Source: a virus (lineage: Duplodnaviria > Heunggongvirae > Uroviricota > Caudoviricetes). From it: a stretch of DNA of 15,362 bases. Both the position numbers and the translations under genes were made by a program. Numbering within the stretch: the stretch's first letter is position 1; every line of letters starts with the position of its first letter. The DNA lies in IMG/VR virus record IMGVR_UViG_2721755498_000003. One strand, written 5' to 3'. The notes beneath the pieces are model-generated. The model worked only from the letters and a program-made list of their open reading frames with translations, made no database searches and had not been told where the DNA came from. Positions 4,770 through 14,382 of this stretch are shown in pieces.

Positions 4770-4827
4770 AAAAAGGGCGGCAGAGCAGTCACGGAGTAAA
4801 ACTGATACCGCCAAACGTCACCAGAAA
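4770..4827 (-). ncRNA. dicF: DicF small regulatory RNA (ftsZ-targeting sRNA) with intrinsic terminator
   Basis: Minus-strand sequence TTTCTGGTGACGTTTGGCGGTATCAGTTTTACTCCGTGACTGCTCTGCCGCCCTTTTT matches the DicF RNA as I recall it. It ends in a GGCGG...CCGCC hairpin followed by a T-run. Lies between ydfC and dicB. Confidence 0.8.
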
Positions 4828-5701: not shown

Positions 5702-5780
5702 GCTGACCTCATTTCCCCTTAACGCCGGGGTAGCGGAACTGTTTGCTGAGAACACCGTGCGGTGTCTTGATGGAAAATAA

Positions 5781-5834
5781 TTTAGAATAACCTAACATGA
5801 GAGGCAAGTGTTTTTTGTTAGATTGATCTAACAA
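5781..5834 (-). promoter_or_regulatory. Promoter/operator region of the ydfABC-dicF-dicB operon (P_dicB analogue) with palindromic repressor operator
   Basis: Near-perfect palindrome TTGTTAGA-TTGA-TCTAACAA at 5815-5834, plus a degenerate second site at about 5781-5798 (TTTAGA...CTAACA). On the minus strand a TTGCCT -35-like hexamer sits between the two sites. Located between the dicA stop and the ydfA start. Confidence 0.5.
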
Positions 5835-5869
5835 AAAGGGTGGGCGCAACTAATCACTTGAAAAGAATG

Positions 5870-6277
5870 TTATTTTATTGATTTATTTTTACGCGCTTTA
5901 AGCATTTCTTCGAAGAGTTTGTTGAAGTTTTCTACTCTTGCGCGCATTTCAGACAGCAAGGCTTCCTGCTCGGAAGATGGAAGAGCATCGAATAATTCGA
6001 TCAATTCTTTGTGGTTGGGAGTTAGCTCTGTTTCCACATGAAGTTCTTGTGCAGGCACTGGTGCCTTGTCTTCGTCACCAAACATTAGCCATGTAGGTGA
6101 GCACTTCAGAGCATCCGCTAAAGCAAACAATCGTTTTCCGACTGGCTGGGTTTCGTCTCTTTCCCATTGTGAAATTGTGACGTGAGCAACTCCAGCGAGG
6201 CGCGCGGCTTCTCGTTGTGTTAAGCGTAATTCTTTTCGTCGCGCCAGAACTCGCTGGCCCAGGGTTCTTGTATCCAT
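5870..6277 (-). CDS. dicA: DicA-like repressor (XRE/cI-type HTH N-terminus, DicA-type C-terminus)
   Basis: 135-aa ORF. HTH region LTQREAARLAGVAHVTISQWERDETQP. C-terminal motifs CSPTWLMFGDEDK and EMRARVENFNKLFEEMLKAR are recognisably DicA-like, but the N-terminal half is diverged from my recollection of K-12 DicA. Divergent from a Cro-like gene. Confidence 0.8.
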   Translation of the reverse strand: MDTRTLGQRVLARRKELRLTQREAARLAGVAHVTISQWERDETQPVGKRLFALADALKCSPTWLMFGDEDKAPVPAQELHVETELTPNHKELIELFDALPSSEQEALLSEMRARVENFNKLFEEMLKARKNKSIK

Positions 6278-6299
6278 AGTTAGGTAATTCTAATTTTTC

Positions 6300-6344
6300 T
6301 TGACTTAGGTATCCCGCGCACAATAATGTTAGAAAAGTCTAACA
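6300..6344 (+). promoter_or_regulatory. Rightward early promoter (P_dicC, pR analogue) with overlapping operator
   Basis: -35 TTGACT (6300-6305), 16-nt spacer, -10 AATAAT (6322-6327). The palindrome TGTTAGA-AAAG-TCTAACA (6327-6344) overlaps the -10 and start site. On the opposite strand a TAGAAT -10-like element sits 12 nt before the dicA ATG, suggesting a nearly leaderless repressor transcript. Confidence 0.55.
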
Positions 6345-6358
6345 AGAGGGGGGCTTTG

Positions 6359-6586
6359 ATGCTTAAAGTTGACGCAATTACTTTTTTTGGCAGCAAAACA
6401 AAGCTTGCCAATGCCGCAGGAGTGAGGCTGGCAAGTGTTGCTGCTTGGGAGATACTGGTTCCTGAAGGTCGCGCGATGCGTCTACAGGAGGCATCTGGCG
6501 GGGAGCTTCAGTATGATCCCAAAGTTTATGATGAATATCGTAAGACGAAGCGGGCGGGGCGGTTGAACAATGAAAATCACTCCTGA
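6359..6586 (+). CDS. dicC: DicC/Cro-like small regulator (75 aa)
   Basis: Start at the internal ATG 6359 (MLKVDAITFFGSKTKLANAAGVRLASVAAW...) preceded by a GAGGGG RBS. The six-frame ORF starts at 6326 inside the operator. Divergent from dicA, in the Cro position of the switch. Confidence 0.7.
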   Translation: MLKVDAITFFGSKTKLANAAGVRLASVAAWEILVPEGRAMRLQEASGGELQYDPKVYDEYRKTKRAGRLNNENHS

Positions 6587-8500: not shown

Positions 8501-8853
8501 GTGCACCGGCAACCATTCTTGATATGTGCTGTGGCAGCCGCATGTTCTGGTTCGATAAGTCTGACAAACGGGCGATATTCAGCGATATCAGAAAAGAAGG
8601 ATACACATTACGCAATGGGAGACGCTTGATTATCAGCCCTGACATTATCGCAGATTTTCGTGCATTATCATTTGCAGACGCATCTTTTTCGATGGTTGTA
8701 TTAGACCCTCCGCATCTTGAGCGTGTTGGTGATAACGCCTGGATGGGAAAGAAATATGGACGGCTGAATAAAGATGCCTGGCGTGATGATTTGCGACAGA
8801 GATTTAAAGAAGCTTTTCGGGTGTTGAGGCCGCACGGCGTTCTGATTTTTTAA
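8497..8853 (+). pseudogene. Beta-class N6A/N4C DNA methyltransferase, N-terminal fragment (3'-truncated)
   Basis: FSMVVLDPPHLERVGDNAW...RFKEAFRVLRPHGVLIF matches the beta-class layout (hydrophobic run, DPPY-type motif, then RVLKPGG-type motif), with His replacing the usual aromatic residue. The ORF stops 3 codons after that motif. No FxGxG AdoMet-binding region follows in any frame. Confidence 0.5.
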
Positions 8854-10184: not shown

Positions 10185-10518
10185 ATACAGCGAACTCCAT
10201 TGGTTTAGTTGGATATTTACTGTGCTGGACAAAAACGGTTTGCGGGGAAATCTTAGTTAAGTAGAATGACTGCGGGTGCTTGAGGCTATCTGCCTCGGGC
10301 ATGGACACCAACGGCAGATAGAGAAAAGCCCCAGTTAACATTACGCGTCCTGCAAGACGCTTAACATTAATCTGAGGCCAATTTCATGCTAGACACATGT
10401 AGGTTAGCCTCTTACGTGCCGAAAGGCACGGAGAAGCAGGCTATTGTTAACACCAAGCTGTAATGTCCCCTTTGAACCATTCTAAAATGTCCCCAGACAA
10501 TTCTCTGGGGGATTTTTC

Positions 10519-11859
10519 ATGATCAAAGAGACTGTTACGATGAGTCATAAGGAACTCCACCGACTTCAGATTATTCAGGAGTCAATTAATCGACATATTA
10601 CTCAGGAACAAGCTGCGGCACGCATTGGCATTTCTATTCGGCAGGTTAAACGTCTGGTGCAACGGTATAGAAATGAAGGGCCTTCTGGTCTGGTTTCCCA
10701 CCGACGTGGAAAGCGTCCTAATAATTCCTTTTCTACTGAATTCAGAGCAACAGTAATTTCACTCCTCAAAGGCCGTTACGCTGATTTTGGACCTACGTTT
10801 GCGTGCGAAAAATTGCGCGAGATACACGGTTTATCTTTATCCGTTGAAACTCTCAGAAAGTGGATGATAGAAGAGGGGTTATGGCGTGAACGCCGTCGTA
10901 AAATTGCCCGTATATATCAACGCCGCATGCGACGACCATCTTACGGTGAACTGATCCAGATTGATGGCTCACCTCATGACTGGTTTGAAAATCGAGGCCC
11001 CAGATGTACACTGATCGTTTTCATTGATGATGCCACCAGTGCGTTGATGGCGTTGCGTTTTGTGCCTGCTGAAACAACCCGGGCTTACATGGAAACCCTC
11101 CGGGGTTACCTTAATGATCATGGCGTACCGCTCGCTCTCTACTCTGATAGACACAGTATATTCAGGGTAAATAACCCAGAGCGGGAAGGTGAGCTGACCC
11201 AGTTCACTCGTGCGATAAAGACACTGGGCATCGAGCCAATCCATGCCAACAGCCCGCAGGCAAAAGGGCGGGTAGAGCGCGCCAATCAGACACTACAGGA
11301 CAGGCTGGTCAAAGAAATGCGGCTTCAGAATATCAGTGATATTGAAACAGCAAATGCATGGTTGCCGACCTTTATTGAAGCCTATAACAACCGGTTCGCT
11401 ACGTCGCCTCGTACTACTGATAATGCTCATCTTGATGTGCACCATTCTGAAGAGGAACTGGGTTATATCTTCAGCCTACAGGCGAAGCGCGTTCTGTCTA
11501 AAAATCTCACTTTCCAGTACAAAAGCAGTGCGTTTCAGGTACGCAGTGAGAGCCGGGGATATCGACTTAGGCATTCGGTTGTTACTGTATGCGAGAACTT
11601 TGACGGTGAAATTAACGTTCTGTATGACGGGAAAGCGCTGGGCTGGGAAAAGTATGTTGATGGCCCGGAGCCTATACCACTGGATGATGAAAAGAGTGTC
11701 CATGAACGAGTGGATAATGCCCGTATTGATTTACGCTCAAAATACTATGTTAAACCTAAAGCTGACCATCCCTGGCTTACGCGCCGAACGCAAAGTCATC
11801 AGCAAGTTAAGCCCCCGAAGTTACCTAAAAAGAAGCCTGATCCCGATAAAAAAGATTGA
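10519..11859 (+). CDS. DDE transposase with N-terminal HTH and rve-type integrase core (single-ORF IS, ISNCY/IS1202-like)
   Basis: 446-aa ORF with RBS GGGGGA 7 nt upstream. HTH region QEQAAARIGISIRQVKRLV. Catalytic triad candidates: D in IQIDGSPHDW, D in LYSDRHSIF, E in KGRVERANQTLQ. Basic Lys/Pro-rich C-terminal tail. Family assignment is from memory, not a search. Confidence 0.85.
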   Translation: MIKETVTMSHKELHRLQIIQESINRHITQEQAAARIGISIRQVKRLVQRYRNEGPSGLVSHRRGKRPNNSFSTEFRATVISLLKGRYADFGPTFACEKLREIHGLSLSVETLRKWMIEEGLWRERRRKIARIYQRRMRRPSYGELIQIDGSPHDWFENRGPRCTLIVFIDDATSALMALRFVPAETTRAYMETLRGYLNDHGVPLALYSDRHSIFRVNNPEREGELTQFTRAIKTLGIEPIHANSPQAKGRVERANQTLQDRLVKEMRLQNISDIETANAWLPTFIEAYNNRFATSPRTTDNAHLDVHHSEEELGYIFSLQAKRVLSKNLTFQYKSSAFQVRSESRGYRLRHSVVTVCENFDGEINVLYDGKALGWEKYVDGPEPIPLDDEKSVHERVDNARIDLRSKYYVKPKADHPWLTRRTQSHQQVKPPKLPKKKPDPDKKD

Positions 11860-13160: not shown

Positions 13161-13400
13161 ATGGGTAGCATTAACCTGCGTATTGACGATGAACTTAAAG
13201 CGCGTTCTTACGCCGCGCTTGAAAAAATGGGTGTAACTCCTTCTGAAGCGCTTCGTCTCATGCTCGAGTATATCGCTGACAATGAACGCTTGCCGTTCAA
13301 ACAGACACTCCTGAGTGATGAAGATGCTGAACTTGTGGAGATAGTGAAAGAACGGCTTCGTAATCCTAAGCCAGTACGTGTGACGCTGGATGAACTCTGA
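13161..13400 (+). CDS. relB: RelB antitoxin
   Basis: 79-aa ORF MGSINLRIDDELKARSYAALEKMGVTPSEALRLMLEYIADNERLPFKQ..., recognisably RelB. Its stop overlaps the relE start in a TGATG arrangement. Confidence 0.9.
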   Translation: MGSINLRIDDELKARSYAALEKMGVTPSEALRLMLEYIADNERLPFKQTLLSDEDAELVEIVKERLRNPKPVRVTLDEL

Positions 13401-13687
13401 TGGCGTATTTTCTGGATTTTGACGAGCGGGCACTAAAGGAATGGCGAAAGCTGGGCTCGACGGTACGTGAACAGTTGAAAAAGAAGCTGGTTGAAGTACT
13501 TGAGTCACCCCGGATTGAAGCAAACAAGCTCCGTGGTATGCCTGATTGTTACAAGATTAAGCTCCGATCTTCAGGCTATCGCCTTGTATACCAGGTTATA
13601 GACGAGAAAGTTGTCGTTTTCGTGATTTCTGTTGGGAAAAGAGAACGCTCGGAAGTATATAGCGAGGCGGTCAAACGCATTCTCTGA
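13400..13687 (+). CDS. relE: RelE toxin (ribosome-dependent mRNA interferase)
   Basis: 95-aa ORF MAYFLDFDERALKEWRKLGSTVREQLKKKLVEVLESPRIEANKLRGMPDCYKIKLRSSGYRLVYQVIDEKVVVFVISVGKRERSEVYSEAVKRIL, recognisably RelE. Confidence 0.9.
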   Translation: MAYFLDFDERALKEWRKLGSTVREQLKKKLVEVLESPRIEANKLRGMPDCYKIKLRSSGYRLVYQVIDEKVVVFVISVGKRERSEVYSEAVKRIL

Positions 13688-13758
13688 ACCAAAGCATGAC
13701 ATCTCTGTTTCGCACCGAAGGTGACACTTCTGCTTTGCGTTGACAGGAGAAGCAGGCT

Positions 13759-13914
13759 ATGAAGCAGCAAAAGGCGATGTTAATCGCCCTGATCGTCATC
13801 TGTTTAACCGTCATAGTGACGGCACTGGTAACGAGGAAAGACCTCTGCGAGGTACGAATCCGAACCGGCCAGACGGAGGTCGCTGTCTTCACAGCTTACG
13901 AACCTGAGGAGTAA
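13759..13914 (+). CDS. hokD: Hok-family small membrane toxin (HokD/RelF)
   Basis: Below the six-frame size cutoff. Hand translation gives MKQQKAMLIALIVICLTVIVTALVTRKDLCEVRIRTGQTEVAVFTAYEPEE (51 aa), with GGAG RBS 8 nt upstream. A 15-codon upstream ORF (13697-13744) ends 14 nt before the start. Confidence 0.8.
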   Translation: MKQQKAMLIALIVICLTVIVTALVTRKDLCEVRIRTGQTEVAVFTAYEPEE

Positions 13915-14130: not shown

Positions 14131-14382
14131 ATGATGAACATCGAAGAACTGCGTAAAATTTTTTGTGAAGATGGCCTCTATGCTGTGTGCGTTGAAAATG
14201 GAAATATTGCTAGTCATTACCGCATTGTGTGTTTGCAAAAAAATGGGGCTGCGTTAATTAATTATGTGGATGCCCGAGTGACGGACGGATTTATCTTGCG
14301 CGACGGTGAGTTTGTCACTTCATTACAGGCATTAAAAGAGATCGGAATAAAAGCTGGCTTTTCTGCTTTTTCAGAAGAATAA
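14131..14382 (+). CDS. rem: Rem-like small protein (83 aa)
   Basis: 83-aa ORF in the position of rem downstream of hokD in Qin. Identity is by size, order and recollection. Confidence 0.55.
   Translation: MMNIEELRKIFCEDGLYAVCVENGNIASHYRIVCLQKNGAALINYVDARVTDGFILRDGEFVTSLQALKEIGIKAGFSAFSEE

Follow-up and report, generated by a model that had tools for sequence, protein, structure and literature searches.

The stretch of DNA examined here, IMG/VR virus record IMGVR_UViG_2721755498_000003, is referred to below, in its full length of 15,362 bases, as the window, and by its sequence it is a Qin-like lambdoid prophage of Escherichia coli that is less decayed than the cryptic Qin prophage of strain K-12. 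Our subject is the region in which the genes of a DicA-type repressor and of a DicC-type, Cro-like protein diverge from a common intergenic region of ~80 bp (6278-6358). This region is very probably the immunity switch, of the lysis/lysogeny type, of a Qin-family lambdoid prophage, working in the manner proposed below. Judged by gene order and sequence, it is orthologous to the dicC-dicA-dicBp immunity locus of K-12, and what we describe is an allele of the known Qin DicA/DicC switch. For K-12, the literature already covers the operator of this switch, its bistability, its antirepressor, and the leaderless mRNA of its repressor. The new elements are modest and comprise the location of the operators of this common allele, a fourth site, comparative support for the left sites, and a consistent difference at position 7 of the operator half-site. 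Around the switch, some 1.3 kb are 99.9% identical to many E. coli chromosomes, and this 1.3-kb region is present at a coverage of at least 80% in 538 (roughly 1 in 10) of the 5,426 complete genomes of the species.

The sites themselves are the natural starting point. The palindrome TGTTAGA-N4-TCTAACA occurs twice in the window with zero mismatches: once at the rightward promoter, where the site that we call Oc overlaps TTGACT-N16-AATAAT exactly as an earlier note on this DNA had read it, and once beyond the end of the repressor gene, where OL1, drawn by that note one base too wide on each side (5815-5834 for 5816-5833), forms the centre of a 26-bp perfect palindrome (5812-5837). The degenerate third copy that the note had put at 5781-5798 is also present, one base to the left and with 3 mismatches (11/14 specified positions), and is here named OL2. 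A fourth copy, Oa, matches at 10 of the 14 specified positions in plus-strand reading and had escaped the note; a repeat finder, in which three copies make up one family, exposed it through the 83% complementarity of 6279-6301 to 5774-5796. A pattern scan allowing up to 3 mismatches gives 4 matches in the window against 0.57 expected, a number that none of 200 shuffles reached; the match at 8549-8566 (3 mismatches) is without a TTAG-N6-CTAA core and was set aside as probably due to chance. Of such cores the window has precisely four (5782, 5818, 6280, and 6329), against 0.18 expected. Between Oc and Oa we place a candidate middle site, Om, with its centre 24-25 bp from the centres of both, a spacing like that of P22 and lambda; this site, as a reading of the sequence, is the weakest part of the operator assignment. 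The block GCGCGGGATAYCTAAGTCAA (6306-6320, between Oc and the -35 hexamer) is kept in loci of the same repressor type from several genera (L005, L083-L092), with diverging bases next to it; it falls on the candidate Om and also on the place that a -35 of the repressor promoter would occupy.

Table 1. Features of the switch and related elements in the window, with the basis of each assignment
Feature	Position	Strand	Placement or sequence	Basis
OL2, degenerate operator copy (putative)	5780-5797		ATTTAGAATAACCTAACA; covers spacer and -10 of the putative leftward promoter	Type-specific site at the same position in all related loci
OL1, perfect operator copy (putative)	5816-5833		TGTTAGATTGATCTAACA; ends 8 bp upstream of the putative leftward -35	Pattern scan, palindrome, core count
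Oa, degenerate operator copy (putative)	6278-6295		AGTTAGGTAATTCTAATT; over repressor -10 and predicted start	Corresponds to K-12 Oa
Om, candidate middle operator	6303-6320		ACTTAGGTATCCCGCGCA; one good half-site; overlaps rightward -35	Sequence reading, 9/14
Oc, perfect operator copy (putative)	6327-6344		TGTTAGAAAAGTCTAACA; ~-7 to +11 of the rightward promoter	Orthologue of K-12 Oc
Rightward promoter (dicCp equivalent)	6300-6327	+	TTGACT-16-AATAAT; predicted start 6334	Promoter scan, 10/12
Putative leftward early promoter (dicBp equivalent)	5779-5807	minus	-35 TTGCCT (5807 to 5802), 17-nt spacer, -10 TAAATT (5784 to 5779)	
DicA-type repressor, 135 aa	5870-6277	minus	P22 C2-like helix-turn-helix N-terminal domain	Pfam HTH_3, E=1.5e-14
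DicC-type (P22 Cro-like) protein, 75 aa	6359-6586	+		Pfam P22_Cro, E=3e-11
DicF small RNA	4775-4826	minus	Within the leftward operon, between ydfC and dicB	Rfam RF00039, 76.7 bits
Rem antirepressor	14131-14382	+	Presumed induction input	92% identical to K-12 Rem

The K-12 Qin locus provides the experimental background against which these sites can be read. At the position of Oc, K-12 has TGTTAGTTATGACTAACA, and the counterpart of Oa, immediately ahead of the dicA ATG, is AGTTAGCTAATGCTAAAT; downstream of dicA, the sites TGTTAGCTATAGCATACA and TGTTAGTCATGGCTAATC (in dicA orientation) flank a TTGACC -35 and match the positions of OL1 and OL2. The K-12 Oc, TTGTTAGTCATAACTAACAA (TGTTAGT-N4-ACTAACA), binds DicA, as judged from point mutations that relieve DicA titration, from a dicA-dependent in-vivo operator assay in which one A-to-C change suffices to remove the signal, and from an electrophoretic mobility shift assay with crude extract, and DicA at this site represses dicC and is needed for transcription of dicA (PMC3441716). 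DicC in turn represses dicA and binds the dicA region (PMC11430063, PMC10448788), its strongest signal in chromatin immunoprecipitation followed by sequencing being found on both sides of dicA with the motif TT(A/C/T)G...C(G/A/T)AA (PMC11430063); our TTAG-N6-CTAA core fits that motif. DicA and DicC form a bistable switch, in which Rem is the antirepressor that relieves repression by DicA in K-12 (PMC10448788).

A windowed alignment of the two prophages confines their divergence in this part to a single block, 5780-6458, in which identity per 30 nt ranges from 30 to 83%; on either side of it, identity to K-12 Qin is mostly 97-100% (the lowest 30-nt windows reaching 26-27/30). The edges of the block are sharp, with the left one at the -10 of the leftward promoter and the right one within dicC at about codon 33, beyond which the gene is identical to K-12 dicC. 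Because the divergence is confined between such near-identical flanks, the unit of exchange is one 680-bp cassette, made up of the left and right operators, the repressor, and that part of the Cro-like protein which binds DNA; in this it looks like a classical immunity region of the lambdoid kind. Shared with K-12 Qin are thus the chromosomal neighbourhood, the gene order, the operator positions, the 18-bp palindrome of 7-N4-7 format with outer TGTTAG, the rightward -35 TTGACT, the distance from the -10 to the repressor ATG, and Rem; the differences lie in OL1, which is imperfect in K-12 and a perfect palindrome in the window, in the repressor, in the first ~33 residues of DicC, in position 7 of the half-site, and in the retention of int, xis, and exo by the prophage of the window.

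Support that is independent of K-12 experiments comes from related loci, of which a genome scan supplied 21 (from Escherichia, Citrobacter, Enterobacter, Symbiopectobacterium, Rahnella, and others) and two scans of viral contigs a further 160. Their layout is conserved: an Oc-type palindrome stands at -67/-68 from the repressor ATG, the rightward -35 TTGACT at about -37 to -31, and a weaker, Oa-type site fills the 18 bp before the ATG, and OL1 follows the repressor stop by ~36 bp in most types and by more in a few, with OL2 34-37 bp beyond it. The sequence of the sites changes with the helix-turn-helix (HTH) of the repressor. The window's type (TQR..VAHVTISQWE) has the half-site TGTTAGR and the K-12 type (TQR..ISHVSVSQWE) has TGTTAGY; SQA..VAHVTISQWE goes with CCTTAGR, ..SHATISLWE or ..SGSSISLWE with T(G/A)TTGAG, and ..SSVSVFKWE with ATAACT. 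The weak sites change along with the strong ones according to repressor type and keep their positions. This co-variation is the strongest non-experimental evidence available that all four copies bind the proteins of their own cassette, a conclusion that we draw from sequence comparison. One comparison concerns a single residue: loci L007 and L093-L103, from Enterobacter-type genomes and related viral contigs, have the recognition helix of the window's repressor (VAHVTISQWERDE), a helix 2 that starts with SQA instead of TQR, and operators of the form CCTTAGR-N4-YCTAAGG. The change from TQR to SQA thus goes with a change of the outer TG to CC, which suggests that the outer TG is read by the arginine of TQR.

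The same comparison bears on two other explanations of the sites. In one, which we hold to be unlikely, only the two perfect palindromes are operators, and 5780-5797 and 6278-6295 are merely the -10 and start regions of leftward-reading promoters. Their likeness to a half-site could then arise from the overlap of TTAGA with TAGAAT, a hexamer that recurs before the ATG in several types with a different Oc (L007, L011, L016), and the Oa of K-12 is not bound by DicA on its own; against this, the two sites vary by type, reading TTAAGAT..CTAAA in TTGAG types, TTAACTTATATTAT in TAACT types, and TTAGC..GCTAA in K-12, the TTAG-N6-CTAA core falls at just these four places in 15.4 kb, and the repression of dicA by DicC in K-12, together with its binding there, needs a site over the dicA promoter (PMC11430063, PMC10448788). 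The other explanation, to which we give very little credence, takes the 26-bp palindrome at 5812-5837 to be mainly an RNA hairpin, a terminator or stabiliser at the 3' end of the repressor transcript that insulates this transcript from the ydfA operon. The palindrome lies 33 nt past the repressor stop codon, and the minus-strand RNA does fold into an 11-bp hairpin (-13.5 kcal/mol for an 81-nt segment, z=-3.1 against shuffles). Neither strand, however, has a U-tract, the terminator scan makes no call, and in other types the sequence at this place tracks the half-site of the repressor, on which three points we reject termination as the main function of the left palindrome; moreover, the stem is AT-rich, the core is the same 18-mer as Oc, and the K-12 site at the same position is imperfect and forms no hairpin.

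Reading all four copies as operators, we turn to the promoters that they would serve. The last T of the rightward -10 is the first base of Oc, and in K-12, where the start of the dicC promoter was mapped by rapid amplification of 5' cDNA ends (5'-RACE), Oc likewise overlaps the -10 (PMC3441716). On the other side, synteny and site scans place the ydfABC-dicF-dicB-ydfD operon downstream of the dicA-type gene, with operator-like sites at its putative promoter; the predicted start, near 5771, is the A of a conserved CATCAA, as read from sequence and conservation, and a CTTG(A/C)C -35 between OL1 and OL2, a TAAnnT -10 inside OL2, and the CATCAA itself are conserved across repressor types. The earlier proposal of operators at both divergent promoters is borne out by the sites and by K-12 orthology, with a different arrangement on the left, where the perfect copy stands just upstream of the -35 and it is the degenerate one that covers the spacer and -10.

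The repressor promoter has a layout of its own. Before the gene, the minus strand reads TAGAAT-TACCTA-ACT-ATG, in which the TAGAAT element (6292 to 6287) is separated from the ATG (6277 to 6275) by the 9 nt TACCTAACT; the note had recognised the element and gave a slightly too large distance of about 12 nt. There is no Shine-Dalgarno sequence upstream of this ATG, and the promoter is without a recognisable -35. The DicC-type gene has a Shine-Dalgarno sequence, AGAGGGGGG, at 6346-6354. The K-12 counterpart, TAGCAT-TAGCTA-ACT-ATG, has the same geometry between the -10 and the ATG, and all family members that we examined have a TAnnnT hexamer 6-9 nt ahead of the repressor ATG. In K-12, the transcription start site (TSS) of dicA lies 3 nt upstream of the ATG, the 3-nt leader having been confirmed by RNA ligase-mediated reverse transcription PCR (RLM-RT-PCR; PMC4681348, Table S3, Fig. 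2A, Fig. S1), and dicA is counted among the known leaderless genes (PMC8794815). By homology, the repressor mRNA of the window would be near-leaderless as well, with a 3-nt leader and a predicted start at the A at 6280 on the minus strand, and the note's suggestion of a leaderless transcript is in this sense upheld by the K-12 orthologue.

The working of the switch that we propose can be set out as follows, where the sites with their non-random clustering, the orthology, the conserved layout, and the co-variation with the HTH are what the sequences show, and where for binding, repression and activation, TSS positions, and the role of Rem we infer from the K-12 experiments and from homology. 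A dimer of the DicA-type repressor would bind 18-bp operators of the form TGTTAGR-N4-YCTAACA. At Oc, it would cover the -10 end and the start of the strong rightward promoter and so keep DicC and the replication-side genes off, and with Oc occupied, the weak, overlapping, and opposed repressor promoter would fire, whether it is activated directly or freed from competition for polymerase, the polymerase footprints of the two promoters being predicted to overlap. At Oa, which covers the -10 and start of the repressor promoter, DicC and perhaps excess DicA would shut the repressor off, and Om, the weak middle site, may form a bridge between Oc and Oa. At the left promoter, that of the ydfABC-dicF-dicB-ydfD operon, OL1 would load the repressor just ahead of the -35 and help to fill OL2, the occluding site over spacer and -10, and the two together would keep the division inhibitors off. 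Because the repressor is without a RecA-cleavable domain, induction would proceed through the Rem antirepressor or through spontaneous flipping of the bistable DicA/DicC switch.

Several observations weigh against this scheme. The predicted Om and Oa of K-12 were not bound by DicA when tested alone in vivo (data not shown in that report; PMC3441716), and given this, the degenerate sites of the window may need cooperativity or may serve DicC only. OL1 and OL2 are 36 bp apart (~3.4 turns), which offers no obvious cooperative phasing, and the strongest left site, OL1, lies upstream of the -35 and outside the core promoter; in both respects, the spacing and the position, the arrangement is less tidy than that of lambda. 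For K-12, the DicA site at the dicB promoter was in 2020 still a low-evidence entry of unknown location, and Reg-Seq detected no site for RNA polymerase around the dicA promoter (PMC7567609). In the window, a simple promoter scan called only the rightward promoter, both minus-strand promoters falling below its thresholds, and the positions of these two rest therefore on K-12 TSS data and conservation.

The repressor that would act on these sites is 57% identical to K-12 DicA. The earlier note had seen this divergence and had located it in the N-terminal, DNA-binding half; it extends in fact over the whole length. Residues 1-71 align without a gap to the N-terminal domain of the P22 C2 repressor (E=1.3e-18), the homology stopping at about residue 71, and the remainder of the protein has the conserved C-terminal motifs of the DicA type, CSPTW.FGDE, LP.SE, and NFN.LFEE; a Pfam search of the repressor gave no Peptidase_S24 match. 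At the operator level it resembles the SOS-cleavable lambdoid repressors (lambda cI, P22 C2, and 434 cI), a class defined by a LexA-like S24 peptidase domain at the C terminus with an Ala-Gly cleavage site, yet it is not a member of that class, because it has only 135 aa, has no S24 domain, and loses its homology to P22 C2 at about residue 71. The DicC-type protein is 84% identical to K-12 DicC, with every difference within the first ~33 residues. Rem, for its part, is 92% identical to its K-12 counterpart although its presumed target repressor is only 57% identical, and either it recognises conserved parts of DicA (the linker and the C-terminal motifs) or it is unmatched to this repressor.

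Whether an exchanged cassette of this kind means an exchanged specificity is a separate question, to which a comparison of half-sites with K-12 Qin, as envisaged in the earlier note, gives a mixed reply. The outer half-site TGTTAG is the same in both types, and the consistent difference lies at position 7. There, 80 of the 86 half-sites taken from distinct sites of the window's type (74 loci) have a purine and all 76 half-sites of the K-12 type (79 loci) have a pyrimidine, counts that come from loci that are not phylogenetically independent. The P22 repressor contacts operator positions 2-7 and 12-17 and reads positions 8-11 indirectly through the geometry of the minor groove, its residue E44 governing the sensitivity to the central bases (PMC4267663); in our alignments, the equivalent of E44 is Q in the window's repressor and E in K-12 DicA. 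Genome identifiers of loci with the two alleles do not overlap, but as both alleles occupy the same prophage site, this tells nothing about heteroimmunity. It is possible, though less likely than not, that the specificity is the same as that of K-12 DicA; the differences at position 7 and in the centre would then come from neutral drift or from a tuning of affinity, and each allele would repress the other. The identical outer TGTTAG, the conserved recognition-helix residues H, V, S, Q, W, and E, and the fact that the P22 repressor makes no contacts at central positions 8-11 (PMC4267663) would all agree with cross-repression; the consistency of the position-7 difference, the fact that position 7 is among those (2-7) which the homologous P22 repressor contacts (PMC4267663), and the joint exchange of operators, repressor, and DNA-binding part of DicC as one cassette, a pattern usual for immunity modules, speak against it. 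An immunity specificity separate from that of K-12, in line with the different operator specificity that the note had considered, is in view of the position-7 difference and the cassette exchange plausible but unproven. If it exists, the position-7 swap may act together with the Q-for-E replacement at the E44 equivalent and with other changes in helices 2 and 3. Taken to its furthest, this becomes the rather doubtful idea that the DicA family is a natural series of heteroimmune specificities on one scaffold, in which the position-7 swap separates the window's type from that of K-12 and the central polymorphism stems from affinity selection or a mutational hot spot.

This central polymorphism deserves description in its own right. 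In the K-12-type loci (L104-L183), all three operators are polymorphic almost only at the central positions 7, 8, 11, and 12, and the changes there are transitions only (TGTTAG-YYATRR-CTAACA), with 9 haplotypes of Oc, 12 of OL1, and 14 of OL2 among 79 loci; the arms of Oc and the adjacent intergenic DNA are nearly invariant. In the 74 loci of the window's type, the arms of OL1 are likewise nearly invariant and its central bases variable, and similar central variation of OL1 is found among loci with an identical repressor protein (L024-L082). Such dense polymorphism may be a sign not of drift but of selection still acting on the affinity of the operators, or of a mutational hot spot that the repressor induces.

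Several better known switches can be set beside this one. With the immC region of Salmonella phage P22, it shares the residue-for-residue alignment of the C2 N-terminal domain, the P22_Cro match of DicC, and 18-bp symmetric operators, and the contacted arms and indirectly read positions 8-11 of P22 (PMC4267663) match the invariant arms and variable centres of the window's family; it differs in that C2 is a protein of 216 aa with an S24 self-cleavage domain, in the half-site TGTTAGR, and in the Q at the place of E44. Like lambda cI/Cro, it has divergent repressor and cro genes, a tripartite right operator with ~24-bp spacing, and a second set of operators at the leftward early promoter, and by analogy it would also share a weak repressor promoter that depends on repressor occupancy and a leaderless repressor mRNA, as made from P_RM. 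In contrast to lambda, it belongs to an unrelated HTH subfamily with unrelated operator sequence, its predicted leader has 3 nt instead of 0, its operator centres lie ~12 bp closer to the repressor TSS, its strongest left site is upstream of the -35, and the proposed induction passes through an antirepressor and not through RecA. In this last respect, it approaches the Gifsy/Fels-type repressors, which are also short and without a cleavage site and are accompanied by a small prophage-encoded antirepressor; Rem was indeed found through its similarity to the Gifsy and Fels antirepressors (PMC10448788).

The prophage around the switch follows the Qin plan. In one matching genome the gene order is integrase, excisionase, exonuclease, ydfD, dicB, ydfC, ydfB, ydfA, an HTH protein, a Cro/CI-family regulator, and a YdaT-family protein, followed further along by flxA, relBE, hokD, and rem, and the whole prophage adjoins ynfA/rspA. 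In the window, homologues of relB, relE, and hokD lie at 13161-13914 (+), in K-12 Qin order and upstream of rem. A match to the sok antitoxin RNA (RF01794, 104 bits) at 10274-10445 (+) indicates a module of the hok/sok type; it adjoins the start of an ISEsa1-like transposase open reading frame (10519-11859), for which the annotation of the matching genome gives a truncated pseudogene. At locus L002 (1236-2433, genome flank), rspA and the gene of a zinc-binding dehydrogenase, the host genes beside the integrase, appear in the annotation as truncated fragments, which suggests a deletion or rearrangement at the integrase end of that prophage. A DNA-level comparison with the phage collection found no characterised phage with this allele; the sole match over most of the query was an 8-kb record named 'Escherichia phage Rac' (89% identity, 85% coverage), and the other 11 matches were short (24% coverage) and annotated as dicA/dicC.

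For the biology of these prophages, the interest of the switch lies in what it controls, namely the division inhibitors DicB and DicF together with the lysis protein YdfD. The existence of a second operator/repressor allele matters for the prediction of cross-immunity among Qin-like prophages and related functional phages, and the located operators, including the left sites that databases list as unmapped for K-12, help to interpret DicA/DicC regulons outside K-12. The correspondence of HTH and half-site across the family, though a small resource, can be used in studies of the specificity of P22-C2-like repressors, and the current understanding of how such switches work is left unchanged by these findings.

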